From assembly GCA_964558645.1 (NCBI GenBank), contig CAZLEV010000003.1, positions 192,001-256,000 of the forward strand: a stretch of 64,000 nt of DNA. Reading direction: 5' to 3'. Position numbers and translations under genes: made by a program. Positions 37,760 to 61,385 of this stretch are shown here, piece after piece; the stretch's first letter is position 1, and every line of letters starts with the position of its first letter. The stretch comes from an uncultured archaeon (GTDB taxonomy: Archaea; Asgardarchaeota; Thorarchaeia; Thorarchaeales; Thorarchaeaceae). Below the pieces are notes generated by a model. That model saw only the letters and a list, made by a program, of their open reading frames with translations. It was not told the origin of the DNA and ran no database searches.

Positions 37760-39924
37760 TCCATGTACTTTCTTAGACCCGTTCTGAAGCTTCTAGCAGC
37801 CTCTTTCATGTCCACCTCGAAATCGCCGAAGTCTGCTACTCTGTTGTTCACAGTCAATCCAATCTCCACTACGGGTGTTTCATGTTTCTCCATTACATCC
37901 ATGAACTGTTGTTGATTTGATTCCGTCACCTCGGCGACATATCGGGCTGAGGTTTCGGAGAACAGGATTTCGACATCTCTCGAAGTTGTACCCGGGACAT
38001 AGTCCAAATCCACCTTGAAGCCATAGTCGCTATTCATGACCATTTTCATCAAAGATATGGCAAGACCCCCCCTTCCCAGATTGTTGCAGGATCTTATCAG
38101 TCCAGACTTGTGACACTGGAGAATTGCATTCATGACGTTCTTTTCACGCTTCGGTCTGTAGACAGGGGGTATTCCTTGGACTCTTCCGGTAATCATGCTC
38201 TGGAATTCAGTTCCGTTTAGCTCGGGCAGCGTTTCTCCAACGAGGAGGAGGTTGGCCCAAGGGGTACAAAGACTCCGTCTAATCGGTACATACCCTGGTT
38301 CAAAGATGCCAGCCATCATAATCTGTGGAGTGGGATTGATCCTACGTGTCTTGCCTTCGGTTTCTGCTTCATTATAGAGCGATACATTCCCTGCTACTAC
38401 CGGGATTTCGAAATCATTTGAAAAACGGCCCAGACCCCTAATCGATTCGACAAATTCTGCATACGAATCCGGCCTTTCAGGGTTTCCGAAGTTGAGGCAA
38501 TCTGCAATAAGAATCGGTCTTGCGCCCATCGAGACAATGTTTCTCAGGCACTCTGCAGCCGAGTTGGCTGTACCTTGCTGAGGATCAAGCAAGCACCACT
38601 GAGAATTACAGCCACTCGAGAAGGCTATTCTCTTGTTGAAAGGAAACTCAAGAACTCCTGCATTCTCCCCGATATCTACGATTGTATTAATCTGAACGTG
38701 CTGGTCATATTGGGAGTAAACCCAAGATCTGTCGCATATGTTGAGAGAGCCGAGCATCTCCACTATTACCTTATCGAAATCATGGTCGTCTTTCACCCAA
38801 TCTAGACTCTGCTTCTGAACCGGGATTACCCCCTCAACTCTCTCAGGAATAGGACATCCATCAACCAGAAGACTGATGGGTAGTCTGGCCTTGACTTCTC
38901 CACCCTCTAGCACCGTGTAGTGCTGGTCAGCAGTGACTTGACCAATGACTGCATGTGGGGCCTCGCTCTTAGCAAGAATCTCGAGCACATCATCAAGATT
39001 CTCAGGAGATACTACCGCCAACATGCGTTCCTGAGATTCAGATACGATTATCTCCCAAGGAGCCATGCCTTGCTCTCGAACCGGCACTCTATCAACATCA
39101 ATCGTGACCCCCGTTCCGCCATTCGAGGCCATCTCTCCGGCACATGATGTCAGACCACCTCCGCCCAAATCTTGGAGGCCATCAATGAGCTCCTGCTCTA
39201 CTAGTTCGTTCAGCACATCTATGAGTACCTTCTTGGCAAGAGGATCGCCTATTTGAACCGCTGCTCTATTCTCTTCTTCACGATCGGAGAAAGCCTCCGA
39301 GGCGAAGCTCACCCCTGCGATACCATCTCTCCCTGTCGTAGACCCGAAGATAACCAAATGATGCCCCGGGGTTTTTGCGCTGCTTCTGATGACTTTCTCG
39401 GGCTTTACAACTCCGATGCAGACGACGTTCACAAGGCAGTTTCCCTCATACGAGTCATCAAAACTGAGGTCGCCGCCAATCGTAGGGATGCCGACGCTAT
39501 TGCCATAGTCAGAGATACCGCGAACAACGTGTTCCAGAAGATATGCATTCCTTGGTTTTTTTGGATGCCCGAAATGTAGACAGTTCATGAGCCCAACAGC
39601 TTTACACCCTTGTGATATGACATCTCGAATGATGCCCCCGACTCCAGTAGCAGCACCGTTGTACGGATCTATCTGGCTTGGATGGTTGTGCGACTCCATT
39701 GCGACCCCCAGAAGAGTCCCATCACCGATATCAACTAGCCCTGCTCCTTCCCCTATGCCGAGGTAGACTCTCTCCCCCTTGGTCTTGAAGAGATGGAACC
39801 ATCTCTTGCTGCTCTTATAGCTGCAATGCTCACTCCAGAGCACATCGAGCATAGCCAGCTCGGTTTCATTTGGCTTCCTCCCAAGAACCTTTGATGCCTG
39901 CTCGAGTTCTGCTTTCGTTATCAC
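37756..39924 (-). CDS. purL: FGAM synthase subunit PurL (small type)
   Basis: [57 protein letters not shown]. Confidence 0.97.
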
Positions 39925-40613
39925 AAGGTATCCCTCACAAAGTTCTCTAGGATAAGACTGCCATCTTGAGAGCCTATGGCAATTCTGGACGCACGTTCAG
40001 GATGAGGCATCATGCCCATCACATTACCCCTCTCATTGACGATTCCAGCGATGCTCGTCACTGACCCGTTGGGATTCGTTTCGTCTGAGATATTTCCATC
40101 CTTGTCACAGTATCTGAACAACACCCTCTTTTCGGATACGAGTCTATCCAACGTGTCATTGGTGCAGAAGTAGTTACCTTCAGCGTGCGCGATGGGTATC
40201 CTGATTATCGCATTCTCCAGTCCCTCCGTGAATCGGGAGACATCCTCTGATACTTTGAGGTAGACCCATTTACAGACAAAACGAGCAGATTCATTGGCAA
40301 GAAGAGCGCCTGGCAGAAGTCCTGCCTCGGTAAGGATTTGAAATCCGTTACAGATGCCTAGAACCGGTTTGTCGTCATCGATGAGCTCCTTCACACCCTC
40401 CATAATATCTCCGACTGATCCTACGGCCCCTGCTCGTAAGTAATCGCCGAATGAGAAGCCTCCTGGGATAACAGCTCCGTCGGCTTCTTGAAGGGCAGTT
40501 GGACCAAGACGACTTGGAACAAGGAACGGATCTGCACCGGGTATTCCATTGAGCACCCGAATCACGTCTTGTTCGTTATTCGTTCCAGGGAAACGCAGGA
40601 CTGCGATTGCCAA
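39921..40613 (-). CDS. purQ: FGAM synthase glutaminase subunit
   Basis: FPGTN, PGGFSFGDYLRAG, GICNGFQIL, AHAEG, NPNGS, MMPHPER. Confidence 0.97.
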   Translation of the reverse strand: MAIAVLRFPGTNNEQDVIRVLNGIPGADPFLVPSRLGPTALQEADGAVIPGGFSFGDYLRAGAVGSVGDIMEGVKELIDDDKPVLGICNGFQILTEAGLLPGALLANESARFVCKWVYLKVSEDVSRFTEGLENAIIRIPIAHAEGNYFCTNDTLDRLVSEKRVLFRYCDKDGNISDETNPNGSVTSIAGIVNERGNVMGMMPHPERASRIAIGSQDGSLILENFVRDTL

Positions 40614-41621
40614 CTATGTCAGCCTCAATTCTGTTCTTTCAGCAATAGGATTGGAGAGAAGCTTCATGTTCATCTCCTCAAGCTTCTCTAGGAGGTCGGG
40701 ACTTACCGGCTGGTTGACGGTGATTCTGTATATCCTTCCCGCACGAACATCTACTGCATGGTCGAATCCTAGTCTTGTCATGGCCTTTCGAGTCACTTCA
40801 CCCGGAGGATTCTTGATACCGTCCTTTGGCAAAACGAGAACTGATAGAGTCTCCACCCTATTGGGAATCTCTTCAGGGTCTGTTTCTCTCAGTCTGTCCA
40901 GTAGTCGTCTGTAAGCATCGACGACATCTCCTGAATCGTCTCTGAAGATGTCTTTGTCCAATGAGTCTTCATCCTTGTCCCAGACTCTAATCGTGTCTCC
41001 TGAGATCTCGTCTGCTAGTAGGATTGCCCCATCTTTTGTCTTCCCAAACTCAAGCTTGAAGTCAACGAAACGTAGTCCAGCTTGCGAAAGGAGTTCTCGT
41101 AGGTAGTAATTGACGGACAGTGTCACCGCATGTATGAAGGCAATCTCATCTGCCGTGGCGAAGCCAAGCCTTTCTATGGCGTCGGTGGAGAGGAGTGGGT
41201 CATGGAGAGAGTCATCTTTGAGGAAGAACTCAACCAAAGGTTCTGCAAGGACTTGCCCACGCTGGATGCCATATCGCTTACAGAATGATCCTGCAGCGAA
41301 GTTGCGGCATACAACCTCTAGAGGGAAAATCTCAACTTTGCGGCAAAGCCACCTTGTATCCTCAAGCCTCTTGATGAAATGGGTTGCAATGCCCTTTTCT
41401 TGTAGATACTTCAGAAGAAACTCCGACGTATCGCAGGTCACGAGAGCCTTACCCTCAATCTCGTCTCTCTTCTCACCGTCACCAGCAGTAATTGCATCTG
41501 TGAATTCTATGATGACTCTTTCTGGGGAGTCTGGGTCGGCGTAAACACGCTTGACTTTTCCCTCGTTGATTAGATCCAACTTCAATATCTCCTTTCTCTT
41601 TATGCTTGGGTTTTCTCGCAA
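40614..41621 (-). CDS. purC-purS: SAICAR synthetase (PurC)-PurS fusion
   Basis: EGKVK, PLEVVCRN..AGS, DFKLEFG, LADEISGDT.RVWD, LDKDIFR; C-terminal ~80 aa VLPKDGIKNPPGEVT...LGF..DVRAG...KLLSNPIAE is PurS-like. Confidence 0.92.
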   Translation of the reverse strand: MRENPSIKRKEILKLDLINEGKVKRVYADPDSPERVIIEFTDAITAGDGEKRDEIEGKALVTCDTSEFLLKYLQEKGIATHFIKRLEDTRWLCRKVEIFPLEVVCRNFAAGSFCKRYGIQRGQVLAEPLVEFFLKDDSLHDPLLSTDAIERLGFATADEIAFIHAVTLSVNYYLRELLSQAGLRFVDFKLEFGKTKDGAILLADEISGDTIRVWDKDEDSLDKDIFRDDSGDVVDAYRRLLDRLRETDPEEIPNRVETLSVLVLPKDGIKNPPGEVTRKAMTRLGFDHAVDVRAGRIYRITVNQPVSPDLLEKLEEMNMKLLSNPIAERTELRLT

Positions 41622-41638
41622 TACATCATCTTTATGAA

Positions 41639-42712
41639 CTATGTGGAAACCTCGCTCAGGCGGTCTTCTTTAGCAGCTGTTTCGATATCAATCATGCAAA
41701 GGTCTAGCGGACTATGTATCTCTCTATTCATCTTGAGGGTTAAACGACGCATCTCAGGGCTTGTGGGACCCACACATGGCGATCCCGGGACACGGGGGCT
41801 AAGGTCGAAAATAACGAATTCCGAGTCGACAGTCAAAGCCCCCTGTAATGCGAAGAGGCCTATGATCCCTGGCGGAAAATGCTTTCTTGCTCCTTCAAGA
41901 AGCTGTTCTGCAGCTTGATAGACAAGAGGCTTCTTACTCTCTCGCATTGTAACTCCCTTATGACCTACCTCTTCGTTGACGATCGACACATCCAATCCGG
42001 TCTGGTCCTCGGCGGGGAGATTCAATAACCCGCTGAGATTCGTCTGGATTCTATCGTCAAAACCTACGAAGTCGAGTTGGCCAAAGTGGTCTACCATTGC
42101 ATAGGCCTGAAAGTTTGCGTTGAATCGCGGAGCGATAATGAACTCCTCGACAGTGGCGTTCGCAAGATCTTCTTCCGCTATGACCCCTTCGTCAATCATC
42201 TGACGACTCTTGATTTCATATTCCTCAGTGGAACTCGCATAGAAGAATGCCCGCTCCAGGGGACGCTCCTTCTGCTGGACCTTTACAATGACAAGTCTGT
42301 CAATCTCATCGGGTTCAATCATTTTTGGAATCCTGATACCTGACTCTTCCATGAGCCAATACTGGTCTCTTTCTAGGCCTCTCTCCTCCACTCTTAGGAT
42401 ATGCCTGTTTCCGTAGATGGGTATCCTGAATCTCTCTTCGATATTGCTGTAACCAACATAGACCGAGAAAGATCGATTCGGAATCCATAGTGTGTCCAGC
42501 TCGCTCAGCTGGTTCTGGGTATCATCTTGAATCATCTGGGAAAATTTGTCAAGCACGATGATACTATCGTAGAGATGTTTATTGTAGTGGGTGTAGAGTT
42601 TCTCTCTCCCTCTTTGACAAACCACTACTGTTCGAAATCCGTTTGCCTTGGCAGACACCGCTATTTCTTCTGCACTGTGTGAACCGAGCATTCCAATTGT
42701 CGGTAGCTTCAT
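41639..42712 (-). CDS. PurP-like ATP-grasp protein (DUF1246/DUF1297), copy 2
   Basis: GSHSA, IPNRSF..YVG, ERAFFY, EVGH..T.RES, GLFALQG, FDLSPRVPGSP. Confidence 0.88.
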   Translation of the reverse strand: MKLPTIGMLGSHSAEEIAVSAKANGFRTVVVCQRGREKLYTHYNKHLYDSIIVLDKFSQMIQDDTQNQLSELDTLWIPNRSFSVYVGYSNIEERFRIPIYGNRHILRVEERGLERDQYWLMEESGIRIPKMIEPDEIDRLVIVKVQQKERPLERAFFYASSTEEYEIKSRQMIDEGVIAEEDLANATVEEFIIAPRFNANFQAYAMVDHFGQLDFVGFDDRIQTNLSGLLNLPAEDQTGLDVSIVNEEVGHKGVTMRESKKPLVYQAAEQLLEGARKHFPPGIIGLFALQGALTVDSEFVIFDLSPRVPGSPCVGPTSPEMRRLTLKMNREIHSPLDLCMIDIETAAKEDRLSEVST

Positions 42713-43662
42713 TCGATCACCTCATCAAGCGCATTCATTTCTTCTAGTTCTTTGATTTCGCGAGCTATCCTGCGTCCCATCCACATGGGCTCGGAGAACA
42801 TGAGATAACTGTAGGGGGAGTATGGAATCCAAATGTTCGTCCCTGCAACTATACGTCCACTAAACTCGAACGTGTAGATCTGTTGGTTCCGGTCAATTAT
42901 GGTCTCGAGACAAAATGGTCCGACCAGCCTCTTTCCGGTAAGCTCCTGGAACGCCCTGGCAAAGTGCTTTCCCATCTCATAGTACCTAGCGAGGGTGGAC
43001 TCCCTCAACACCATGGGCAGATTGCCAATCACAACAAACGAGGGCCGCTCGTCGAATCTTAGATTGGCGTCTGCGTCTGTTTCATACCGGATGTCTGCGC
43101 CAAACACTTCCATTCGTTCCCTTGCCACCGAGTTGAAGTATGTGACGAAGACTTTCGTGCCGACAATGTACTCCTGCATAGCCACTTGGGTATCCGAGCT
43201 CATCTTGGCACGTGCCTCCTCCCCGTTCTCAGCAATGAAGTATCCCTCGCCTCCTGCAGCTCCATGCGACTTGACTATGATGGGGCAGTCGACCTCATCG
43301 ATGCTTGCGAATTCTCTTGGAACAAGAAGTCCAGCCGCTCTCATCAACTCGGATTTTAGCTCTCTGTCTTCTTCCCACCGCAGCAACTCCTTACTGCCAA
43401 ATAGTCGTAGATTGGACTCGATGATTCGGTCAGCTCCAATATAGGCAACAAAGGAACCATGAGGTACCATTATGGTGTCAGATAGATCCATATCAAGAAT
43501 CTCATCGAACGCCGACACTCTGATAATAGAATCTGACAGCCCAAAGGTGCTATAGAATTCCTCTCTATCTGAGTGGCAATAGAGAGCTGTCTGGAAACCT
43601 TCTGCTCTCGCTCCAGAGAGAATGTTGAGGGCACTGTGGCTTGCAATAGTTCCAATCTTCAC
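42709..43662 (-). CDS. purP: PurP-family formate-dependent AICAR formyltransferase (FAICAR synthetase)
   Basis: ASHSALNI..GA..EGF, PHGSFVAYIG, GGEGYF, D.RYET, GNLP.VLRES, GPFCLET, FEFSGRIVAGTN, MGRRIAREI. Confidence 0.88.
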   Translation of the reverse strand: MKIGTIASHSALNILSGARAEGFQTALYCHSDREEFYSTFGLSDSIIRVSAFDEILDMDLSDTIMVPHGSFVAYIGADRIIESNLRLFGSKELLRWEEDRELKSELMRAAGLLVPREFASIDEVDCPIIVKSHGAAGGEGYFIAENGEEARAKMSSDTQVAMQEYIVGTKVFVTYFNSVARERMEVFGADIRYETDADANLRFDERPSFVVIGNLPMVLRESTLARYYEMGKHFARAFQELTGKRLVGPFCLETIIDRNQQIYTFEFSGRIVAGTNIWIPYSPYSYLMFSEPMWMGRRIAREIKELEEMNALDEVIE

Positions 43663-45053
43663 CGTATCTCCCTCTCATAGTCTCTGATGCCATCTTGCAT
43701 GCCATCCGAGTGGACGGCTTTCTGTATCCTTCTTGCATGCTCTGTGGGATAATCGCCATCCAAACATGCCAGGCACATATCCTGAATGCCAATGGCATTC
43801 ACAAGCCCATCGATGTCCTGGTAGATGAGAGCATCTGCACCTATGAAATCGCGTATACTTTCCATGTCTGCTTCTGAGGCGATCAGTTCTCTTGAATTCG
43901 ATATATCTATGCCATAGTAGCAAGGATGGCTCTGTGGTGGGCATGTCACTGCAAAATAAACTCTGGATGCTCCTCTTCTCTTCAAATCATTGACTATCAT
44001 CTTGGCTGTTGTACCCCTTACGATACTGTCGTCAACGACCAGCAGGTTCCTTCCCCGAATCTTGTCGTCTAGGTAGATGTACTTGTAATGTGTCACCGAG
44101 TCTCTCTCTGAGACTGAGCAAATGAACGTTCGACCTAGGTATCTGTTCTTCAGGATGACCTCCCTCATTGGCACTCTCAGTTCTTCAGCGAGGGCCTGTG
44201 CGGCCGGTCGGCTCGTATCTGGTACCGGGATTACGTAGTCGGGTTTCTCCAGTTGAAGATTAGTGAATGTATTCGCAAGTGCTCTACCTAACCGGAATCG
44301 AACATCATACACAAGCTGATTCTCTATTCTCGCTGCTGGATTCGCGAAGTAGACATACTCAAAGAAGCAGTGCTTGTGGGTGTCTTGCTGAGATATGCTG
44401 TAGCACTGAACCGACTTCTCAGGTCCAAAGATAATGAGTTCTCCGGGGTAGACATCTCGGTCGAAGATGACTTGAGCCATGTTGAGAACAGTGCTCTCGG
44501 ATGCTACTATGGTGTGTTCAGCTGATCTGCCAAAGACAAGGGGCTTGAACCCTCGAGAGTCCCGATAGGCAAAGAGTCTTCCGTCATAGATTCCAACAAT
44601 ACTATATGCCCCGTCAATCTCTGACGCGAGTCGGGTGAAGGCGGTGGCCAGATTTCCATCGCCCTCTGAAAGATGCATCCATAGCCTATCGCAAATGAAT
44701 TTGGTATCACATTCATAGTCCTCATGAACCAACGAACGGAGGTTTGTTATGTTTCCGTTGTGGGTGACTGCAAGTCGACCCTTCTGGAAAGGCCCCACGA
44801 AATCATGAAATCTTTCCTCCGAGGTCACCCGGTGTCCAGACGTTGGATATCTGGTGCTTCCAAGGATGATGTTTGACTCCTTCTCTTGGAGAGACAGATT
44901 TGAAGGGTTACCTATCGTCTTGGACTCCTGGAACTTCGAACCAGATATCCAGAGCAAACCTGAGGCGTCCTGTCCCCGATGTGTTAAGAGGCGGAGTAGT
45001 TCCTTCGAGGCGCCTAATTCATAGCGCCCAAGAATACCAAGAACACCACACAT
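43659..45053 (-). CDS. purF: Amidophosphoribosyltransferase (Fe-S type)
   Basis: N-terminal MCG nucleophile, HRGQD, HNGNI, CFFEYVY, VDDSIVRGTT, PCYYGID, CLACLDG. Confidence 0.96.
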   Translation of the reverse strand: MCGVLGILGRYELGASKELLRLLTHRGQDASGLLWISGSKFQESKTIGNPSNLSLQEKESNIILGSTRYPTSGHRVTSEERFHDFVGPFQKGRLAVTHNGNITNLRSLVHEDYECDTKFICDRLWMHLSEGDGNLATAFTRLASEIDGAYSIVGIYDGRLFAYRDSRGFKPLVFGRSAEHTIVASESTVLNMAQVIFDRDVYPGELIIFGPEKSVQCYSISQQDTHKHCFFEYVYFANPAARIENQLVYDVRFRLGRALANTFTNLQLEKPDYVIPVPDTSRPAAQALAEELRVPMREVILKNRYLGRTFICSVSERDSVTHYKYIYLDDKIRGRNLLVVDDSIVRGTTAKMIVNDLKRRGASRVYFAVTCPPQSHPCYYGIDISNSRELIASEADMESIRDFIGADALIYQDIDGLVNAIGIQDMCLACLDGDYPTEHARRIQKAVHSDGMQDGIRDYEREIR

Positions 45054-45060
45054 GTAATCT

Positions 45061-45666
45061 TCACTCCCTGATTCTCACAATTCTTCCATCTGCCGCGAGT
45101 CGATTCTCACAGAAGAGCTTGACACTCTCAACCAGTATTCGGTGTTCTTCAGGGAGTATCCTGTCGGCAAGAGTTTCTCCAGTATCGTTCTGCCTGACTT
45201 CGACTGGAGTCTGCAGGATTATTGGCCCTGCATCCATGTCTACGTCGACGAAGTGCGTGGTACAGCCTGAGAATCTTACCCCATACTCCACTGCTTGCCA
45301 TTGAGCCTTAACTCCCTTGAAGGCAGGAAGGAGTGATGGGTGTACGTTTATCATTCTGTGTTTGAACTCTCTGCAGAAGAAGGATGTAAGAATCCGCATA
45401 TAGCCAGCTAGGACGACCAAATCCACGCCGTTGTCTTTCAACACCTGAACAACAGCGCGATCATGGTCCTCTCGGTTCGGGTGATCAATCTTCGTGATGA
45501 TTTGAGTCTTGATTCCTGCTTCTTCCGCGCGCTGCAAGCCGTATGCACTGCTCTTGTTACTGATGACTATGGCTATCTTGCCGTCAAAATGCCCGCTTCG
45601 CTGCGCATCGATTAGGGCCTGAAGATTCGTGCCTCGTCCACTTATCAGAACCCCGATACGTGTCAT
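45061..45666 (-). CDS. purN: GAR transformylase (folate-dependent)
   Basis: ISGRGTNLQAL, LAGYMRIL, NVHPSLLP.FKG, GCTTHFV..MDAGPII; likely start ATG 45666. Confidence 0.96.
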   Translation of the reverse strand: MTRIGVLISGRGTNLQALIDAQRSGHFDGKIAIVISNKSSAYGLQRAEEAGIKTQIITKIDHPNREDHDRAVVQVLKDNGVDLVVLAGYMRILTSFFCREFKHRMINVHPSLLPAFKGVKAQWQAVEYGVRFSGCTTHFVDVDMDAGPIILQTPVEVRQNDTGETLADRILPEEHRILVESVKLFCENRLAADGRIVRIRE

Positions 45667-45719
45667 GTAAAACGGCCGCTTTAACACGACTATTTATGAC
45701 TTACTCAAGAATGCTGGGT

Positions 45720-47669: not shown

Positions 47670-49076
47670 TCAGAGCTCACCTATCCTGCGAAGGAATCTG
47701 GACCTCTCCCAAATACCATCCAACATCTGGACCGCCTCTTCGATAGTATCACCAACAGGAATTCCGTTGAGCTCAAAGCCTCGGATTATGATTCCATACT
47801 TCTCCAGATATGGCACATAGGCCACCACTGTCTTGTTGTACTTCTTGGCTACATTTGCAACCCTAGCTCCGATCTGAAGAGATATTCCGGGTGCATACGG
47901 GAGCAGAAGCAGCAATGCCGCATCGATGTAGTCGATTTCAAGCATAACGTCGAGGACACGCTCGTAGTCGACGTCTGATGCACTACCGGTCAAGTCACAG
48001 GGATTTTGGAAGGACGATATGCGTCTGTATGCTGCTGTCATCGCCTGCCTCATTCTCTCCTGATCCTCTTCTTTGAAGAGCGGAAACTCGAGACCATGAT
48101 ATGCAGCCTCATCAGTTGCAATAACACCGTGTCCGCCGCTGACAGTTAGAGCCCCTACCCTCTTGCCCATCATGGGCTTCACTTCAGACGAGAAGACTTT
48201 GGAGTAGGCCATCACATGGTCCTCATCTTCGGCCTCAATCACGCCATATTGTCTGAAGGCTGCCGATGTCACCTCCGAATCACCTGCAAGCGAAGATGTG
48301 TGACTCTGTGTGGCTCTGTGTCCAGACTCTGACTGACCACCCTTCAAGACAACAACTGGTTTCTTGGGTGCTATTTCGGAGCAGGCTTTGACAAACTCGC
48401 GACCTTCTCCTTTGGAGAATCCTTCGATGTAGGCAAGAATCACTCGAACGCGTTCATCTTGTCCGAAGTGACGCACAAAGTCGGTTACTCTAGTTTGGGC
48501 GGCATTGCCTATTGACACTGCAGCAGCAATGCCGAGGTCACGAGAAGCAAACTCCTCGAGTCTCTCCACAAGCCAGCCCCCGCTCTGTGAGATAATTGCA
48601 ACATTACCGTGTCTTGGCCGTGCAACTCTCTCTGAGGGCAGGAAGAAAGTGTCTACTCTGTCCGGGACAAAGACGCCGATACAGTTCGGTCCTACCATAG
48701 TGATGTCGTATTCTTCAGCAATCTCAACGATTTCTTCTTGTAAACTTGCCCCAGTCTTCCCCGTCTCGCTGAAACCGCCAGATACAACGATGGTCGACTT
48801 TATGCCTAGTTCGCCCACTTCCTTCAGGACAGATGGGACGTACTTGGCCGGGACGGAGATGACCACTAAGTCGATCTCATCAGGACAGTCGGTCAGAGTG
48901 GGATAGACTTTGATACCCTCGACTCTTCCACCCTTTGGATTAACAGGAAACGTCTTCAATCCATTCTCAAAGCGAAGCTTGCGGAAGATTACATTACCAG
49001 GGCTGAATGGGTTTGACGTTGAAACACCTACAACGGCGGTGACTCTTGGATTTAGCATGACGTCGAGACCTAACAC
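47670..49076 (-). CDS. ADP-forming acetate/acyl-CoA ligase alpha subunit
   Basis: CoA-binding domain (PVNPK, SGGFSE, GPNCIG), SQSGG, SHTSSLAG phospho-His, NPCDLTG. Confidence 0.9.
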   Translation of the reverse strand: MLGLDVMLNPRVTAVVGVSTSNPFSPGNVIFRKLRFENGLKTFPVNPKGGRVEGIKVYPTLTDCPDEIDLVVISVPAKYVPSVLKEVGELGIKSTIVVSGGFSETGKTGASLQEEIVEIAEEYDITMVGPNCIGVFVPDRVDTFFLPSERVARPRHGNVAIISQSGGWLVERLEEFASRDLGIAAAVSIGNAAQTRVTDFVRHFGQDERVRVILAYIEGFSKGEGREFVKACSEIAPKKPVVVLKGGQSESGHRATQSHTSSLAGDSEVTSAAFRQYGVIEAEDEDHVMAYSKVFSSEVKPMMGKRVGALTVSGGHGVIATDEAAYHGLEFPLFKEEDQERMRQAMTAAYRRISSFQNPCDLTGSASDVDYERVLDVMLEIDYIDAALLLLLPYAPGISLQIGARVANVAKKYNKTVVAYVPYLEKYGIIIRGFELNGIPVGDTIEEAVQMLDGIWERSRFLRRIGEL

Positions 49077-49153: not shown

Positions 49154-50233
49154 CTAAGGCTTCATTTGAGCTAGAATCTCTCTGAGTCTCGGCTCAGCCA
49201 GAATCGCATGCTGAAGTTTGCATAGCAGCTTCGCAGTTTCAGCAAAAATGACTTTTCTAGGAGCATCAGTCACTTGCTCCGCACTCTGGATTGCTTCCTG
49301 GCATCTCTGGTTTATTCTCTTGATGAGGCGCTTCTCGAGCTCAGGGCCGCCCCAGCCAAATCCATCGAATGCCGTCTGTGCGTCGCTGATCTTCTCGTCA
49401 GGGTTAGGTTCTTCGCCCTTGAGGATACCCTCAAGACCGGCAAAGTATCTCGCGACAGCTCGCTCAATCCTCTCTGTTTCGCCTGGATCCAAGTACTTCT
49501 CTGGTGGTCTATGCTTGGCAAGGTCTTGAAGCAGCCGTGCTCCTGGCGCTTCAGTAAGAAGTCCTTTAACAATTTTGACAAGTATTTGTCCGGGAATCTC
49601 TACTGCATCAGACATATGGGGGGATTGAGAGCGATACCTGTGAAGCTCCTTCATGACTTCAAACCAGAACATGGGAAGAAGGACATGACAACGCTTCGAA
49701 TATTGGTTGATCATGCGGTTCGTCTGTCCGATCATACCCCACTCGTCGTCTTCGACTTCTGCTTTCTTGTAGGGCTCTGGTGGGGTTTCTGGTTCCGTAG
49801 GCACAATGGGCCCGGTTCCCTCGCGTTCTTTCGGTGATGTGTGTGTGAGAGGAGTAGCCCTTCCGGTAGTCTTGGGTCCTCCCTCAAGTATCGTGAGAAT
49901 CTCCTGTGCCTCTTTCCCCATTTCCATGGCTTTGGCTTTCTGAGAGAGCTTGGGCAGCAGACTCTCAAGCTGTGCCATTCTCTTGATGATGAGTCCAAGA
50001 ATGTTGGCAGTAGACTGAGGAATACCTTTTGCGGATGTGGTTTCTTCAATCCATCTACGGGTGCGGAGGAGTCCCTGCGTCAGCGAGTCAACACGATCAG
50101 GATCTATTGCCCCCTCGACTTGTGAACTGAGCAAGAAGTGAATCAGAGTGGAGTTGAGGGTTTCAACTAGAAGCACCCTGTCGATTAGGTCCTCCACTCG
50201 GAATTCTTCTGTCAATTCTGGTAACTCCTTCAT
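49154..50233 (-). CDS. Hypothetical two-domain alpha-helical protein with Pro/Thr-rich linker; third gene of the tubulin-like operon
   Basis: 359 aa; ATG directly abuts the upstream TAG (TAGATG). Confidence 0.8.
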   Translation of the reverse strand: MKELPELTEEFRVEDLIDRVLLVETLNSTLIHFLLSSQVEGAIDPDRVDSLTQGLLRTRRWIEETTSAKGIPQSTANILGLIIKRMAQLESLLPKLSQKAKAMEMGKEAQEILTILEGGPKTTGRATPLTHTSPKEREGTGPIVPTEPETPPEPYKKAEVEDDEWGMIGQTNRMINQYSKRCHVLLPMFWFEVMKELHRYRSQSPHMSDAVEIPGQILVKIVKGLLTEAPGARLLQDLAKHRPPEKYLDPGETERIERAVARYFAGLEGILKGEEPNPDEKISDAQTAFDGFGWGGPELEKRLIKRINQRCQEAIQSAEQVTDAPRKVIFAETAKLLCKLQHAILAEPRLREILAQMKP

Positions 50234-51619
50234 CTACTCTGTTGGTGTGCTCGCTTCCATATAGTAGCTGAAAAGCTCTCGGAAGTCGTTGATAGCGCTA
50301 ACGAGTTCCTTTCGGGATGTGCCCTTGGATCTCATGAACCAACTCTGTTTCAACGGAGATGGACCACTATGGAGATTGACTAGCTGAGTTGCTTCATTTA
50401 TGAGTTGAACAAGCTCCGGAATCTTCGGTAGTCCGAGAAGCAACAAAAGATTAGTCGCATAGTCCCTCTTTTCATATTGAACATAGCATGGAGTGATGGC
50501 AGCTCCTGGTGCAATGAACTGGTCGAGAGCCTCTTTGAGATGCATACCATATTCTGCCTTCGAAATATGTCGCGGCCCGCTGAAGACATAGTAGACGCTC
50601 TCAGCATTAGGCTCCTCGCCAACGTCTGCATATGAACACTCCTTCACGGCATAATCGATCATAGTTCGGAGCTGTTTTGGCATACTCCCAGCATCGGGGA
50701 TCAGACCAACATCCGTGTAGAGTGCAGGCACGACCACTGGATCCAGTTTCCGTGCGTAGTCTGCGAGATCTGTTGTTGGGAATACATCCTTATGTGTTTC
50801 ATAGACGCCTGGTGAGAGCATTGCTTCGACAACATCAAGAGCAAGCGGATTGACAAGCTCTACAAAGGCCTGTTCGGTTCTCTCCTCAATCTCAGTCGCC
50901 TCATCGAGAGTTGAGGGTACCATTGTTTCGATTGAACCTACACTGGCTATGTCAACGTTAAGCTCTCGCTCAAGATAATCAACGCTATCGCTTCTTCGTG
51001 ACTGGAGGATTCGTTTCAGCATTGTCCTGTTACTCAGGAGAATAGTTAGGTCTGCCCCACGTTCCTGTAGCTGTGCACGGAGTAGTTTGGAGACCGCCCA
51101 TATGGAGTTGAGTGCCTCACTTGATTGTCCCTCAAAGGGAAGAATGCCGATTACATAAACGAAAATCCTGCGGCCTTCCTCTTCTTGGAATCGCTGCTTG
51201 AGGAGCTCAATCACTGCTGGCGTACCGCCACATCCAGTTCCTCCTCCGAGACTTGTGAATATGCAGAACCCGGAAACACCCTCGAATCCAAGGTTACTGA
51301 GCTGGTCAAAGATTATGTCCTTCGAGTCCATGACTGCCTGATAGCCGTCCATGAAACGGCCACCAACTCCAATCTCCGATGAACCGTAGAGCAAGGTGTG
51401 TTCCTTAGGAATGCCATATTTCGATCTGACCTTGGTAAGATCTGCTCTGTCGGTGTTCATCAGAAGATATCCTCTGACACGCGATGGTAGCTTACGGTCT
51501 CGGCTCGCCTTGAGGTACGAGCCAACTATATTCGAGCCTGCCTCACCAATGCCTATGGCGAATACCTCTGCCGCTTTCGTAGACTCATCCTCGGTCTTCT
51601 TTGAACTATCTCGAAACAT
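50234..51619 (-). CDS. Tubulin/FtsZ superfamily GTPase with tubulin-like features
   Basis: IGIGEAGSNI (T1), NTDRADL (T2), GVGG (T3), GFCIFTSLGGGTGCG (T4), EALNS, LSN, TDLADYARKLDP (T7/H8), C-terminal helices. Confidence 0.92.
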   Translation of the reverse strand: MFRDSSKKTEDESTKAAEVFAIGIGEAGSNIVGSYLKASRDRKLPSRVRGYLLMNTDRADLTKVRSKYGIPKEHTLLYGSSEIGVGGRFMDGYQAVMDSKDIIFDQLSNLGFEGVSGFCIFTSLGGGTGCGGTPAVIELLKQRFQEEEGRRIFVYVIGILPFEGQSSEALNSIWAVSKLLRAQLQERGADLTILLSNRTMLKRILQSRRSDSVDYLERELNVDIASVGSIETMVPSTLDEATEIEERTEQAFVELVNPLALDVVEAMLSPGVYETHKDVFPTTDLADYARKLDPVVVPALYTDVGLIPDAGSMPKQLRTMIDYAVKECSYADVGEEPNAESVYYVFSGPRHISKAEYGMHLKEALDQFIAPGAAITPCYVQYEKRDYATNLLLLLGLPKIPELVQLINEATQLVNLHSGPSPLKQSWFMRSKGTSRKELVSAINDFRELFSYYMEASTPTE

Positions 51620-51623
51620 GATA

Positions 51624-54311
51624 TTATCCCCGTTTCTTAACCATTGTGTCCGCTATAACTCGAACTGCCCATGATAGATATGAGCTTATGTCCTCTCTGC
51701 TGTAGGTCTCGCGGATTTTCCGTACAGCGTCATCCAAGAATTCATCTCGCTTGTCTGCGCTCTCCGCTGGACTGAATCCGGCCATGAACATCTTCAATGA
51801 TTTGTGCCAGTCGTCCATCTTCTCTGCTTTGTCGACCCATCCCTTGCGTAGTTTCTTGAGCTCGTTGAAGTGCTTGAGTGCTTCATCAAGAACCAGTGCT
51901 TCATTTAGCTTCGCTTCCAGTTCATACATGCGGTCCAGCGGGTAAATCTTCACGCTGAAGTCCTTTGGATGCTTCTCAAAGACACGTTCAATTGTTGAGT
52001 AGTACTCGCTCTTCTCACGTAATTCAGAGTCAAACTCTTCCGAATCCTTGTTAGCAATGCTCTTGATTACTGTGAGCATCTCTTCCTGCACGTTAGCCAA
52101 TGTAAGACAAACGTCCAGTGCCTCGTTGATGTGCTTAGACTCTGCATCTAGTTGTACTGGTACCTGCTCAACCAGTGTGTTCAAGCGCGCCACGAACTCT
52201 GACATGCCTTCTTCCTCAAAGAGATGAATTGCATCTTTTATCTGACTGTATGCTTCATCCACTCTGCTTCTGATCTTCTTGTGAAGGTCTTGGGATGTTG
52301 TGAGATTGGCAAGTCTGTCAAAGTCCTCAGCAGCAGCTTCAAGGTCACGTGGTGGTTCCGCCTTGATCTTTCTGAGAACGTCAAGCTCCTTAGTGACTTC
52401 CACTCCGATGCTCTCTGCCTTCTCGAATGATTGCTCCAAGTCGTCGACTTCTTCCATGAGCAAGTCGATGACTTCAGAGCTGATCTTCTTCTCGTATATC
52501 TCGATCATTTTGCGAGCGATTGCCGGTAAGCTGAAGACAGTATCCGCTGCCACTCCAATATTGTTTAGTTCACTGATTGCTTCTTGGACATCTGGGGGTA
52601 TCGTTACTCCTGCTCCCATGAGTTTGGCCGCTGCAAGTCGAATCTTGACCCGTAGACGATATCTGAGATTCTCCAACGAATCTTTCGCTTTTGCTAGAAT
52701 CGAATCCTTGATTGTCCGCATCTCAGACCTCAATGCCCCGAAATCGTCCTTCTTGTCCAGAGTACTGGCGCCGTCTTCTAGATTCACGATTATCGGCATG
52801 AAGATCTCAGCATATTCTGGCTTGATGGTTTGGAGGTCTTCGATGATAGCGTTTACTTCCTGTTTGCAGGCATCTCTGAAAGTTGCCACGCCGCTTTCCA
52901 CCGCATTCCTGAGATTGTTGAGACTCTCAACAAGATAGACTATGCTTCCTTCGAGGTCTTCAACCTTGGGCGCTTTCTTGCTCAGTTGTGCATAATCTAG
53001 CACCCTGTCGGCAGATGTTGCGAGCTCGTTGAATCTGGCCAAGTAGTTACGTATCTTGTCAGTCAGTTCCTGCTTAGCCTCATCGCGTATGGTCTTAGCC
53101 TTCAGGTAGATTTTGATCATACCATCAACGTCGGACTTCTCAAGTTCCTTTCTTGAGCTTGAAACGAACTTGCGTACACCTGACAGATCCTTTATTCCAG
53201 TGTCGTCGGGAACATCAGCTGCCTTCTCGACCTCATCGAGGGTTTCTTCTACTTGGTCTTTGAGAGCAATCTTGACTTGCCCCTCCCATTCAACCATTTT
53301 CTGATAGGAGGAGAGAAGTGACGCGACGTCCTCATTGTCGACCGAGAATACAGGAGCCTGAGGTATGACTGCTGAAGACGTGGGGATGCCCCCTTCAACT
53401 ATCTTGCTGGTTACCTCATGCTTCATGTTGATGATCCTGTCCCTTAGCATGTTGGCAACTTGGAGCCTAGCAGTTTCGAGTTGGCTCTCCAAAGATAATA
53501 GAGTAGTAAGCGTCGTGGCTTTGGATGCATCTCTTGCTAATTCACGAAGCTTCTGAGAAAAGTCCATTGGAAGGTTCAAACCCAGTCTAGTCGCAGTTTC
53601 AACGGAGGCCTGGAGGGACTCAATATCCGACATTAGAGAAACACTGAGCATTCGTGAGACTTCATCCTTACGACCGTCAAGGTAAGTCCTCTCTACTTGG
53701 AGCTTCTTCATAAGAGATAGAATATCAGGAATCGGTAAGTGAGATACTTCGTCAACAGAGACTGTCGTTGCAACTTCGCTTCGATCTATAGTGATATGCC
53801 TCTCATAGGTTTCAACAAATCTCTTGTTTTCGTCCAAGAGCTCCTTTGTATCACGAGCCAGTTCCTGATGCAGGCTGCTGTATTTCTTCGTAAACGCATC
53901 CGCAAACTCGTACAAGTGCGCTGCATCCTTGAAGTCGCCTGCGCCCATCGCTGGAACAGAAACGGCCGAGAGTGCTTTTGCATCTGCTGGCTTTATCTCC
54001 TGGATTGTTGGTATCATGCCCGTTACATCACGATGTGTCTTACGGAAAAGCTCTGCGAAATCACGAATAAGACGCATGAAGTCTTCCTCAAGGTTTCCCT
54101 CAGTATTCTCGACTTTGGATTTGACCTTCCTCTTCGAGAAGAATCCGGCGTCTTCAAGCTCGTTTTCTGTCTTCGACAGCTTTGCAAAGACATCATAGAG
54201 ATGCCTCACCTTTCTGTCTACTTGTTCTTCTAGTGAGGGATCAAGTAGTACTAGCATACCTTTCATTTCGGAAACACGGTCTAGTTCCCGTCGCCAAGTA
54301 TTCGAGTCCAA
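51624..54311 (-). CDS. Large all-helical repeat/coiled-coil rod protein (about 895 aa); first gene of the tubulin-like operon
   Basis: AGGAGGT RBS before TTG at 54311 (ORF-track start 54446 probably too long); no TM or NTPase motif; recurring 60-75 aa helical units. Confidence 0.85.
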   Translation of the reverse strand: MDSNTWRRELDRVSEMKGMLVLLDPSLEEQVDRKVRHLYDVFAKLSKTENELEDAGFFSKRKVKSKVENTEGNLEEDFMRLIRDFAELFRKTHRDVTGMIPTIQEIKPADAKALSAVSVPAMGAGDFKDAAHLYEFADAFTKKYSSLHQELARDTKELLDENKRFVETYERHITIDRSEVATTVSVDEVSHLPIPDILSLMKKLQVERTYLDGRKDEVSRMLSVSLMSDIESLQASVETATRLGLNLPMDFSQKLRELARDASKATTLTTLLSLESQLETARLQVANMLRDRIINMKHEVTSKIVEGGIPTSSAVIPQAPVFSVDNEDVASLLSSYQKMVEWEGQVKIALKDQVEETLDEVEKAADVPDDTGIKDLSGVRKFVSSSRKELEKSDVDGMIKIYLKAKTIRDEAKQELTDKIRNYLARFNELATSADRVLDYAQLSKKAPKVEDLEGSIVYLVESLNNLRNAVESGVATFRDACKQEVNAIIEDLQTIKPEYAEIFMPIIVNLEDGASTLDKKDDFGALRSEMRTIKDSILAKAKDSLENLRYRLRVKIRLAAAKLMGAGVTIPPDVQEAISELNNIGVAADTVFSLPAIARKMIEIYEKKISSEVIDLLMEEVDDLEQSFEKAESIGVEVTKELDVLRKIKAEPPRDLEAAAEDFDRLANLTTSQDLHKKIRSRVDEAYSQIKDAIHLFEEEGMSEFVARLNTLVEQVPVQLDAESKHINEALDVCLTLANVQEEMLTVIKSIANKDSEEFDSELREKSEYYSTIERVFEKHPKDFSVKIYPLDRMYELEAKLNEALVLDEALKHFNELKKLRKGWVDKAEKMDDWHKSLKMFMAGFSPAESADKRDEFLDDAVRKIRETYSREDISSYLSWAVRVIADTMVKKRG

Positions 54312-54508
54312 ATGCCTACCTCCTTTATGGGGCCTAGTCTTTCTCAGTGCACTATGTTTTAAGTGTGTTCTCCGTAGCTCCTCCCAGACTTGTATATTTC
54401 TATGACAGGCTGCTCCTATTGTGATAAAGCATTGTTTTATTAGCACACGAAAATGCCTTATGTTCTACATAGGACCCTGCGTAAGGGAAAGCTAGGCGAG
54501 TCGATAGA

Positions 54509-56452
54509 ATGTCGAGCCCGACTGGAGGTTCAGCAGAGACAGTTCCTCTTCGTCATGAGACTATCACACTGCTTGAGACCGACGTCTTGTCGGTTGTACA
54601 TGACGATGAACATGTCTATGCTGCTTGCAAGGATATGAAGGTCAGAGTATGGGCCAAGTCCAATTGGCATCTAGTTGCCACGCTAGGTGACACAAGTTCT
54701 GAACCCCTTGGGCTTCATATTGATAATGAGCACATCTACGCAACATGCGAGAAACGAGTCTATGTATGGAAGAAGCATACTTGGGGCATGATAGGATGGT
54801 TCGAGCTGAGCTACCAAGCTGCCACATCGATGATTCATGGAGAGTACCTTTACGTTGGCGCCAAGGATGGGCGACTTGTCTCGATTCGCAAAGACACACA
54901 TGAAACAAGTTCATGGCAACTACACAACTCAGACATTTCATCACTGTGGGCAAACGCCGATATCATATGTACTTGCTCGAAGAAGGATAGGCCCAGAGTA
55001 TGGAGATACAACGCGGACCAAGCCCCCTCTGAAGTAACTGAGCTTGAAGGAAAAGAGAAGTGCACAGATATCTCCGGAAGCAACGAACTCCTGATAGTAG
55101 GGTTAGGGACAGGCGAGATAAGACTCTGGGATCGAGTTGAATTTGACCTTGTAAAAACACTGAGCCTTGGCATTAACGAGCCAATCAGGCATATGTGGAA
55201 TAACAACCAGTATCTTGTTGCAGTCATCGGCGCCAAAACCATTGGCATCTGGGACCTGAAGAGTGGGGCAGAGATTGGATCCACAGAGATTGAGGATGTC
55301 GATATCAGCTTCCTCAGTGTTGATGGCGAACATATGTACATCGCGACTGATGACGGAATTCTGGTCGAGCGTTTCTCTCTTGGGGAGGTCATTCTTGATC
55401 TTGACTCTGAGGCTGGCATGGAGTTTGGTGCGAGCCTATTACGTACTTCTCCATATGACGTGTTGGAAGGCGTTCTTGATTTGAAACAGAAGGGTGAATC
55501 TCTGCTCAAAGAGGGAGAGTATCACAACGCTGTGACCCAATTCGAGAAAGCACTCCAGCTACTGATTGACAATAGCCACGCACTTCTAGAGGTTCCTGAG
55601 GAACAAGAGAAACTCACGCGAGAGCTTAACACCAAACTTGGAAGGGCCCTTCTCCGGAGTAAGATTGTGGAGCTTCATGATATCAATGCCCGTATTGAGC
55701 AGATATCAGACGAGCTAGAACTGAAAGGTAAAACAGAAATAGAGGAGAAGGAACTCGAAAAGCTCTGGAGGGAGGCTGCATCTGCAGCCAAAGAGAGCCG
55801 TGTGCTTGCAGAAGCGCAGGCTGGAGATATGCTTGCTTACCAGTTGTCCTATGTTGCCGATAGCTTGGAGTCAGATCTTCAGGATGCCAAGCAGAAAGTT
55901 GAGCAATACCGTGACAAGGTTCAGCAGGTTGTCGCCTTGACCCATGGCATAATGAGCGAATGGCGCTGGATGGAGCGTCGGAGGACCACACTTGCTCAGA
56001 GGAAAGCGTTTCTTGAGAACGCCATCGAGAGGCTCGAAAAGCGGCTTGACGAAGTGGATGATGATGAAGAGGTTCGTGATATTCTCGAAGAGGCGATAGA
56101 AGAACACAAGCAGATTCAAGACCAGATATCTCGTATTCTTGAAGCCTCTGAGAACGGTGAAGAAGAAGAGATTACTGATAGGGATGAGGCCGTAGCGGCA
56201 GTCAACGGCCTTCTGAAAGTCATGCCAAAGAGGAGGAGCGCATTGCTCTCAATTGAGGATTCTGAGGAACGACAGCAGGAGAAGGAGCGTCTGAAAAGCG
56301 CCCTGCAACAAGCGCTTGAAACCGCAGAACAACACAGTCTGAAGGAAGAGATTCGAAACATTGAGAATGAACTCAATGCACTGGAAGGAATCGACTTGGC
56401 CAGAGAGCGCGTGTCACCACACGTAGATACCGAGGACACCGACCAACAGTAA
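54509..56452 (+). CDS. WD40 beta-propeller plus TPR/MIT-like helical bundle plus coiled-coil protein
   Basis: Repeats ending VRVW, VYVW, PRVW, IRLWD, IGIWD; LKQKGESLLKEGEYHNAVTQFEKALQLL; E/K/Q-rich heptad C-half. Confidence 0.85.
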   Translation: MSSPTGGSAETVPLRHETITLLETDVLSVVHDDEHVYAACKDMKVRVWAKSNWHLVATLGDTSSEPLGLHIDNEHIYATCEKRVYVWKKHTWGMIGWFELSYQAATSMIHGEYLYVGAKDGRLVSIRKDTHETSSWQLHNSDISSLWANADIICTCSKKDRPRVWRYNADQAPSEVTELEGKEKCTDISGSNELLIVGLGTGEIRLWDRVEFDLVKTLSLGINEPIRHMWNNNQYLVAVIGAKTIGIWDLKSGAEIGSTEIEDVDISFLSVDGEHMYIATDDGILVERFSLGEVILDLDSEAGMEFGASLLRTSPYDVLEGVLDLKQKGESLLKEGEYHNAVTQFEKALQLLIDNSHALLEVPEEQEKLTRELNTKLGRALLRSKIVELHDINARIEQISDELELKGKTEIEEKELEKLWREAASAAKESRVLAEAQAGDMLAYQLSYVADSLESDLQDAKQKVEQYRDKVQQVVALTHGIMSEWRWMERRRTTLAQRKAFLENAIERLEKRLDEVDDDEEVRDILEEAIEEHKQIQDQISRILEASENGEEEEITDRDEAVAAVNGLLKVMPKRRSALLSIEDSEERQQEKERLKSALQQALETAEQHSLKEEIRNIENELNALEGIDLARERVSPHVDTEDTDQQ

Positions 56453-56464
56453 CTGCAGATTTAC

Positions 56465-57097
56465 TTACCCTGCAGCCGGATACTCGTCAGAAATGCCTAG
56501 CTCGAAGAGATTGTCTTGACGCAATAGTTCGATCCACTCGTCAGCCAAGGGTTGGAGACCCGGGTCAATGGCAAAAGCTGTTTCTGCGGCCTGCAAGGCC
56601 TCATTGTAGGACTCCTCGATGAGGTAACAGACAGCGAGGTTGTACCAGGCTACAGCCGAGTTTGGGTTGAGGCTTAGGGCACGTTCAAGCGAGTGTTTAG
56701 CTTCCTCCCATCGCTCATGGGCGATAAGGGCAATGGCAAGAAGCTCCCAATCTCTGCTCCGCTTGGGTCTGATTCGAAGGCTCTCTTGCAGAGCGTCAAT
56801 TCCCTCATCACTCTCATTAAGAAGCAGGTGAAGATATCCTTTTTCAGCCCATGCTTTTTCAGAACAGGGTTTAATTCTCACTACGTTCTCAAGCGCCTCC
56901 AAGGCTTTCTTCGGTCGTTTCAGTTCAAGGTTGCAGACAGCTATTCGCTCCCAGATGTGATAGTTGTCTGGGTCGATTAGTGCTCCCTCTTCAAGAGCGT
57001 CCACAGCCTCAGAGAACCTGAACTTCTTCATCAAGACAGAGGCCTGATCCAGAATACCGTTTACTGCATTGTTTTTGTGGTTGTTTCTTAACAACAC
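56465..57097 (-). CDS. Tetratricopeptide repeat protein
   Basis: About 5 TPR units (e.g. AWYNLAVCYLIEESYNEALQAAETAFAIDP). Confidence 0.88.
   Translation of the reverse strand: MLLRNNHKNNAVNGILDQASVLMKKFRFSEAVDALEEGALIDPDNYHIWERIAVCNLELKRPKKALEALENVVRIKPCSEKAWAEKGYLHLLLNESDEGIDALQESLRIRPKRSRDWELLAIALIAHERWEEAKHSLERALSLNPNSAVAWYNLAVCYLIEESYNEALQAAETAFAIDPGLQPLADEWIELLRQDNLFELGISDEYPAAG

Positions 57098-59255: not shown

Positions 59256-61385
<2,130 letters not shown>

Follow-up and report, generated by a model that had tools for sequence, protein, structure and literature searches.

Asg.Tub, a non-canonical tubulin/FtsZ-superfamily protein encoded in a conserved three-gene cassette of Asgard archaea

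The Asg.Tub clade was first named by Santana-Molina, del Saz-Navarro & Devos (2023, Front Microbiol 13:1100249, PMC9871819), who described it as an Asgard CetZ-like paralogue. Their set contained four sequences and the group was called scarce. Its placement shifted between CetZ and tubulins, no other family matched its C-terminus, and its neighbours were coiled-coil genes of unknown function, with no context in common with CetZ. The trees in Fig. 4 of that study put Asg.Tub between CetZ and tubulins, and Fig. 6 shows a clade with 100% support, a stem of 2.0 substitutions per site and a weak sisterhood with Halo.Tub (support 62). From indels and midpoint rooting, the authors placed it nearer to CetZ. 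Here we analysed a member of this clade encoded in a 64,000-nucleotide stretch (the window) from an uncultured archaeon of the Thorarchaeaceae (Asgardarchaeota; assembly GCA_964558645.1, contig CAZLEV010000003.1, positions 192,001 to 256,000). The gene occupies positions 50234..51619 of the window on the minus strand, and is the middle gene of a cassette that we call UP-TUB-DOWN. As the clade has been in the literature since 2023, the value of this work is follow-up rather than discovery.

The closest characterised family by sequence and profile is CetZ (Haloferax volcanii CetZ1/CetZ2, 4b46/4b45; Methanosaeta 3zid), which has the same two-domain fold and whose T2 (NT..ADL), T3 (GVG) and T4 regions align with those of Asg.Tub. 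In contrast to CetZ, Asg.Tub gives no CetZ_C match, has Glu rather than Gln in T1, carries a 41-aa insertion between H6 and H7 and extra C-terminal helices, and lies in another operon. True tubulins (OdinTubulin 7evb, Lokiarchaeal AtubA/B 9f6t, BtubA/B and eukaryotic alpha/beta/gamma) are the top structural matches, including the C-terminal helices, and group with Asg.Tub in trees with moderate support. However, their profile score is low, Asg.Tub has no Tubulin_C match, its T2, T3 and T7 are of FtsZ/CetZ type, and it is a single gene, not an A/B pair. FtsZ1 and FtsZ2 resemble Asg.Tub in the GTPase domain and in the DxxD motif of T7, whereas the FtsZ_C domain is missing from Asg.Tub. An acidic, haloarchaeal-type group, here called U1, has the T1 Glu and the NT.RAD motif of T2 in common with Asg.Tub, but it has GGGTGSG rather than GCG and lacks the tail motifs of Asg.Tub. 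Its amino-acid composition and tree position suggest that U1 is Halo.Tub. In layout, the BtubA/B-BtubC and TubZ-TubR-TubY operons are analogous, with a superfamily polymer gene beside dedicated helical or adaptor partners. Their partners are not homologous to those of Asg.Tub, which is a single polymer gene whose partners have no TPR or DNA-binding domains.

Our results suggested that Asg.Tub represents a non-canonical branch of the tubulin/FtsZ/CetZ superfamily specific to Asgard archaea, and that it works as a GTP-driven filament within a three-protein module, a reading that we consider likely. Family membership, residue conservation, operon conservation and phyletic distribution are shown here, as is the fold in the form of a prediction, while polymerisation, GTPase activity, partner binding and the cellular role are inferred.

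Family membership, motifs and predicted fold

The open reading frame (stop codon included) encodes a 461-aa protein that matched Pfam PF00091 over residues 18-202 (E 9.5e-19, 68.9 bits, cut-off 33). A search of 5.8 billion proteins retrieved full-length homologues with 97-98% identity, named Candidatus Thorarchaeota, and about 150 more clusters with 49-90% identity. These clusters were labelled Thor-, Hod-, Heimdall- and Hermod-archaeota or Asgardarchaeia, and nearly all were annotated as 'hypothetical protein'. Since the Pfam match is accompanied by full-length homologues at 49-98% identity across Asgard archaea, it is not due to chance, and the gene is a real and intact tubulin/FtsZ-type GTPase gene. 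Two Thorarchaeales entries of the published Asg.Tub-C alignment (supplement 35), KXH77455.1 and OLS30664.1, almost match the C-terminal half of the protein (240 aa) residue for residue, and both contain the same FVELVNPLALDVVEAMLSPGV...PTTDLADYARKLDPVVVPALYTD... sequence. Membership is directly shown because the published alignment holds these near-identical sequences. By this comparison the window protein belongs to the published Asg.Tub clade, with no difference in kind, and is not a new lineage.

In a profile search of 1.84 billion representatives at 50% identity, two full-length Asg.Tub representatives were found, at 724 and 490 bits, the second labelled Baldrarchaeota. The next match was one distant 457-aa protein at 154 bits, and all others scored about 75 bits or less, which marks a tight and isolated family. 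Against Pfam, no FtsZ_C (PF12327), Tubulin_C (PF03953) or CetZ_C (PF21011) was detected in the protein, even at E values up to 1. The FtsZ equivalog TIGR00065 (NCBIfam) scored 35.9 bits, far under its cut-off of 295.2.

An earlier sequence-only reading of the window had identified a tubulin-superfamily GTPase from a set of short motifs. All of its strings are present in the translation: GIGEAGSN, MNTDRADL (54-61), GVGG (84-87), GVSGFCIFTSLGGGTGCG (114-131), EALNSI (168-173) and DLADYARKLDP (284-294). Residue conservation was then assessed in an alignment of 46 homologues, which are only 49-88% identical overall. In the T1 loop GIGEAGSN (residues 23-30; 51530..51553, minus strand), G25, E26, G28 and N30 are invariant. 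The T1 Glu stands where CetZ and tubulin have Gln, with GFGQAG in CetZ1 at the aligned position. N55, T56 and D60 of T2 and G84, G86 and G87 of T3 are also invariant. The T4 signature GGGTGCGG (residues 125-132; 51224..51247, minus strand) matches the superfamily pattern GGGTG[ST/C]G and carries Cys at the usual Ser/Thr position. All of its Gly residues are invariant, and T128 and C130 are conserved in at least 90% of the homologues. Invariant residues further include P161, F162, Q165, E168 and N171 of T5, S196 and N197 of T6, and N257 of H7. The catalytic motif of T7, D284-L-A-D287 within PTTDLADY (50759..50770, minus strand), has both acidic residues invariant. Its TTDLAD string corresponds to the FtsZ-type DxxD without the leading Asn, and the two FtsZ proteins of the same genome have NLDYAD and NLDFAD. 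These alignments show that the GTP pocket and the acidic pair of T7 are complete and strongly constrained.

Thus the unusual Cys of T4 and Glu of T1 (GEAG) that the sequence-only reading pointed out are real and family-wide, the acidic position of T7 that it stressed is kept, and its assignment of T2 and T3 to the FtsZ/CetZ type agrees with the alignments to CetZ. Its interpretation of the other motifs as eukaryotic-tubulin signatures did not hold. These motifs are superfamily-wide and align as well, or usually better, with CetZ.

A family-specific, variable insertion of about 41 aa lies between T6 Asn197 and H7 (residues ~205-245; 50885..51007, minus strand). From the T6 Asn to the T7 Asp there are 87 residues in Asg.Tub, versus 46 in CetZ, 45 in an Asgard tubulin and 43 in the FtsZ of the same genome. 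The insertion was sized by this motif spacing, as the global hhalign alignment to CetZ is unreliable (zero confidence) at residues 205-300. In the predicted model it has a predicted local distance difference test score (pLDDT) of 50-69, and its sequence varies across homologues.

The AlphaFold2 (AF2) model from the family alignment reached a pLDDT of 82.4 and a predicted template modelling (TM) score of 0.83. It predicts the full two-domain tubulin fold, with a Rossmann-like GTPase domain, the core helix H7 and a C-terminal activation domain bearing T7. VIA-align gave OdinTubulin the highest Z (35.5 over 362 residues, root-mean-square deviation 2.8), followed by CetZ2, CetZ and CetZ1 (34.7, 34.6 and 34.5 over about 325 residues), BtubB (33.9) and eukaryotic tubulins (about 33.3). 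Since Z ranges from 33 to 35.5 over 325-368 residues across tubulins and CetZ, the two families tie in similarity to the model, and neither Foldseek nor VIA-align separates them. No FtsZ was among the top 50 fold matches.

The model further predicts three confident surface helices at the C-terminus (residues 401-416, 422-432 and 436-453; 50261..50419, minus strand; pLDDT 87-92), in which W427, F428, K432 and G433 are invariant. When the model is superposed on tubulins, the alignment covers this tail up to residues 455-458, whereas the CetZ crystal chains end at 415-424. Aligned by hhalign with Asgard tubulins, residues 426-458 fell on the last helix with a weak probability of 30%, and the reversed-sequence control scored nothing. 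When the tail profile was searched against all PDB sequences, no tubulin was found, and the top hits were chance matches to an Fe-hydrogenase and proteasome alpha5 (E 0.03-0.3). By sequence, the resemblance between this tail and H12 of tubulin is therefore not significant.

By sequence, CetZ is the closest family by a wide margin, then FtsZ, then tubulin, as judged from profile comparison. The local hhalign scores were 242.7 for CetZ (E 5.5e-33, residues 19-419), 219.8 for U1, 139 for the FtsZ N-domain and 85.6 for Asgard tubulins. The order was the same when the domains were split, and the C-terminal domain was matched by CetZ and U1 only (E ~5e-6). The best PDB relatives were three CetZ structures, both with the single sequence (6.7e-11 to 2.2e-4) and with the 46-sequence family profile (4.9e-12 to 3.1e-7). 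They were followed by OdinTubulin, AtubA, BtubA/B and gamma-tubulin (~2-5e-5) and FtsZ (~3e-4). With phmmer and the single sequence, the E values were 6.7e-11 for CetZ1 (4b46), 2.5e-5 for CetZ (3zid), 1.4e-4 for BtubB, 2.6e-4 for FtsZ and about 0.01 for alpha-tubulin. All of the PDB sequence matches lie within the GTPase domain.

Conserved cassette, distribution and proposed function

Upstream of Asg.Tub, the UP gene (51624..54446, minus strand) encodes a large helical protein of about 900 aa with no known domain, and a gap of 4 nt separates its stop from the Asg.Tub ATG. Its longest open reading frame is 940 aa. Because alignments to orthologues start near residue 68, the true start may be internal, for example at Met61 (position 54266). 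UP matched no Pfam or NCBIfam family, the ESM-Atlas gave its own Thorarchaeota cluster only, and regular coiled coil was almost absent in a crude heptad scan. UP is homologous to a 1169-aa Heimdall-type gene (E 2e-28).

The DOWN gene (49154..50233, minus strand) encodes a 359-aa helical protein, and its ATG abuts the Asg.Tub stop with a gap of 0 nt. Its AF2 model (pLDDT 84.5) predicts a bundle of three helices at the N-terminus, followed by a disordered linker rich in Pro/Thr/Glu and a conserved all-alpha C-domain (~150-359, pLDDT 95-98). BLASTP found orthologues from other classes at E values of 6e-21 and 1e-27, and no Pfam family matched. The fold likewise had no convincing counterpart in the searches made: the best Foldseek E value against the PDB was 0.19, the ESM-Atlas shape search gave TM scores of 0.31 or less, the Atlas feature search gave nothing usable, and the C-domain was not folded alone. 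A VIA-wide fold match was set aside, as it covered the N-terminal three-helix bundle alone and its Z, at most about 10, is typical of helical bundles in general.

The UP-TUB-DOWN order is collinear in 11/11 primary loci. These come from nine Asgard families and take in the divergent Baldr-type lineage (490 bits). By phmmer, the UP genes at these loci had E values of 1e-23 to 1e-121 and the DOWN genes of 7e-15 to 1e-38, and DOWN is a protein of roughly 340 aa. The gene spacing indicates that the three genes are co-transcribed, and they are probably translationally coupled.

In one Asgard family, about 10 genomes have an additional Asg.Tub gene that is more divergent (~690 bits). Two of these loci were examined (L036:2920-7680 and L043:2060-6831), and in both the paralogue has its own UP-like gene (~1140 aa) upstream, so that UP precedes Asg.Tub in both of these as well as in all primary loci. 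No DOWN homologue was found in the two loci, even by profile search.

The distribution was surveyed in 400 Asgard species genomes, 90 of them of high quality. Asg.Tub was present in 126/400 genomes (32/90 of high quality), against four sequences published before. In the family to which the window belongs, 75/85 genomes carry it, and in four other families the counts were 21/22, 15/19, 5/5 and 4/4. In five further Asgard families it was found in none (0/135, 0/31, 0/14, 0/12 and 0/12). It is thus nearly universal in Thorarchaeia and in several families that NCBI labels Heimdall-, Hod-, Hermod- or Baldr-archaeota. Its identity tracks taxonomy, with 85-98% within Thorarchaeota and about 50-63% to other classes. 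Its frequency in these genomes and its chromosomal setting speak for vertical, housekeeping-like inheritance. The high identity within Thorarchaeota indicates an important cellular role.

The other members of the superfamily were distributed differently. True tubulins, detected by Tubulin_C at 50-100 bits, were found in 8/400 genomes from four families and not in the window genome, which is in line with the ~1% of Asgard genomes reported before (PMC13394414). Asg.Tub and a true tubulin were never found in the same genome or family among the 400, in a comparison where the tubulin set is small and related genomes are not independent. No canonical CetZ was detected through CetZ_C in the 400 genomes or in the window genome, while the Haloferax control was positive. 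The window genome encodes exactly three superfamily members: a single-copy Asg.Tub and two proteins with the Tubulin domain plus FtsZ_C (FtsZ_C 99-112 bits).

By analogy with FtsZ, CetZ and tubulin, Asg.Tub would most likely bind GTP and polymerise head-to-tail as homopolymeric protofilaments, with the T7 loop of each subunit activating hydrolysis by the next one in trans. The self-activating homopolymer proposed by the sequence-only reading appears plausible because a single-copy Asg.Tub stands beside two ordinary FtsZ genes. UP and DOWN probably organise, cap, bundle or anchor the protofilaments. We regard the three proteins as a probable cytoskeletal module because Asg.Tub in the primary loci always lies between the same two helical-protein genes. 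Our guess is that the module acts in cell shape or in membrane or internal organisation rather than in division. A non-division role is more likely because two canonical FtsZ genes are available for division.

Several points weigh against a GTP-driven filament module of this kind. No transmembrane segment and no recognisable targeting domain was found in UP, Asg.Tub or DOWN, and for this reason the cellular role is a guess. In the model, the ~41-aa insertion lies near the longitudinal interface, where it could alter or block the canonical protofilament contacts. The nucleotide pocket deviates at two sites, with Glu in place of Gln in T1 and with Cys in T4, and these variations may have an effect. 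Finally, we found no experimental work on any Asg.Tub family member in the literature. Should Asg.Tub form filaments, the prokaryotes most closely related to eukaryotes would have a major cytoskeletal system that has not been studied at all.

Placement between CetZ and the tubulins

The sequence-only reading had suggested an intermediate lineage between CetZ/FtsZ and tubulins, and proposed maximum-likelihood (ML) phylogeny as the way to check it. Our trees included 8 Asg.Tub, 10 canonical CetZ, 8 U1, 7 true Asgard tubulin and 6 FtsZ sequences (including the two of the window genome), with 13 unclassified ones. Among the CetZ rows, the seeds P0140 and P0142 were checked for CetZ_C, which they matched at 167-184 bits, and the other eight came from the same BLAST cluster. 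The true Asgard tubulins were recovered from Asgard genomes through Tubulin_C. Eukaryotic tubulins and named artubulins lay outside the set. ML trees were inferred under LG+C20+F+G4 (posterior mean site frequency, PMSF) with a 52-row and a 40-row set, and the groups were refined after the first tree.

Asg.Tub was monophyletic, uniting Thor-type and Heimdall/Hod-type sequences (support 99/97). P0125 and P0136, two proteins from metagenomes, were its closest sisters (100/98), followed by U1 (97/91). The Glu of T1 is also present in P0125 (GIGEGGGN) and U1 (GEGGGR). Asg.Tub, P0125, P0136 and U1 formed a clade with true tubulins and two small groups (97/91), outside canonical CetZ (100/99). This topology was kept at 89/93 without U1 and the long branches. 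In the approximately unbiased (AU) test with this limited sampling, an exclusive clade of Asg.Tub and CetZ was rejected (p-AU 0.016), whereas a clade of Asg.Tub and tubulin was not (p-AU 0.287). The protein thus lies outside canonical CetZ, FtsZ and tubulin, and no robust nesting within canonical FtsZ or CetZ was found.

We treat the deep placement of Asg.Tub as tentative, because both stems are long, the eukaryotic tubulins and named artubulins are missing, the groups were refined after the first tree, and similarity scores favour CetZ. An intermediate position agrees with both the published trees and ours, and the lineage is not a new one. The alternative that the sequence-only reading had kept in reserve, membership of a known Asgard tubulin-like clade, proved correct.

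The nearest Asg.Tub outgroup, P0125, is a 457-aa metagenomic protein (L033:8001-10149) with the motifs GIGEGGGN, GGTGCGG and DLMDYANKLDP and a shorter insertion. Its locus contains neither UP nor DOWN, and lies directly downstream of SMC and ScpA genes.

Three other explanations were weighed against an Asgard-specific filament branch. The first is that Asg.Tub is a relative of the tubulin stem, which split from the tubulin lineage after canonical CetZ, is thus nearer than CetZ to eukaryotic tubulin, and has C-terminal helices homologous to H11'-H12. The grouping with true Asgard tubulins rather than CetZ, the AU test, the structural alignments through the last helices and the published Fig. 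4 trees all argue for it. Profile scores point the other way, with CetZ and the FtsZ N-domain above Asgard tubulins and a C-domain matching CetZ and U1 but not tubulin. In addition, Tubulin_C is not matched, the match of the tail to H12 is weak and gone in the PDB-wide search, and the published authors favour CetZ. With stems as long as 1.2-1.3 substitutions per site on both sides, long-branch attraction may have acted, and the trees were made without eukaryotic tubulins or named artubulins. We consider this origin conceivable but doubtful.

The second explanation is that Asg.Tub is simply the Asgard version of CetZ, a cell-shape filament like Haloferax CetZ1 that has diverged in sequence but is a CetZ in function and descent. 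CetZ gives its best sequence matches in the PDB and, over both domains, its best profile match. CetZ folds share the top Z, a homologue from Heimdall LC_3 carries the annotation 'Tubulin-like protein CetZ', and the niche would be free, as canonical CetZ is found in 0/400 Asgard genomes. In contrast, CetZ_C is detected in neither the protein nor the genome, Asg.Tub falls outside the canonical CetZ clade and their joint clade is rejected, and the insertion and two extra C-terminal helices set it apart. The gene context is also different and strictly conserved, and PMC9871819 likewise found no common context. These differences make an Asgard CetZ unlikely.

A role as the motor of a TubZRC/PhuZ-like system for DNA partition or a mobile element, in which UP and DOWN would serve as adaptor and centromere-binding proteins, is very improbable: a three-gene cassette around a divergent tubulin-like GTPase and the presence of TubZ among CetZ-like radiations in the published tree would fit it, but the neighbourhood is chromosomal and housekeeping, the gene is near-universal in whole Asgard families with identity tracking taxonomy, no DNA-binding or other recognisable domain occurs in UP or DOWN, and TubZ-like sequences do not group with Asg.Tub.

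Within the preferred reading of an Asgard-specific filament module, a bolder and rather improbable proposal is that Asgard archaea have, besides FtsZ and lokiactin, a third filament system made up of Asg.Tub and its two co-inherited partners, and that Asg.Tub branched on the tubulin side of the CetZ/tubulin split. Were this so, no living relative of the tubulin stem would be more widespread than Asg.Tub, which is present in about 1/3 of Asgard genomes versus about 1-2% for true tubulins, and its H11'-H12-like surface helices and dedicated binding proteins would prefigure the interface between microtubules and microtubule-associated proteins. Its position near the divergence of CetZ and tubulin bears on the origin of tubulin.

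Neighbouring genes

The cassette lies in an ordinary chromosomal setting, with purine-biosynthesis and DNA-ligase genes nearby. Four scanned genes at window positions 37756-45687 (minus strand) encode purine-biosynthesis proteins (formyltransferase, amidophosphoribosyltransferase-like and PurL-type AIRS domains). On the plus strand, positions 59262-61385 encode a bacterial-type NAD-dependent DNA ligase in this archaeal genome, with adenylation, OB, zinc-finger, HhH and BRCT domains.

Next to UP, a gene divergent from the cassette (54509-56452, plus strand) encodes a 647-aa WD40 beta-propeller protein, and converges on a gene for a 210-aa TPR protein (56465-57097, minus strand). The WD40 and TPR genes were rejected as parts of the cassette, as no homologues stand beside it in the sampled loci of other Asgard families.

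Genes for small GTPases of the Arf/Ras family occur upstream of the cassette, a few kb away or immediately adjacent, in one Heimdall-type locus and one 'Asgardarchaeia' locus (L004:102-1037 and L008:4532-5113), and none stands beside the cassette in the window. On the other side, the cassette in the window is followed by an ADP-forming acyl-CoA synthetase-like gene with CoA_binding and Succ_CoA_lig domains (47670-49076, minus strand). A homologue of it (E 3.6e-78) also follows the cassette in one locus of another Asgard family (L038:8441-9862).

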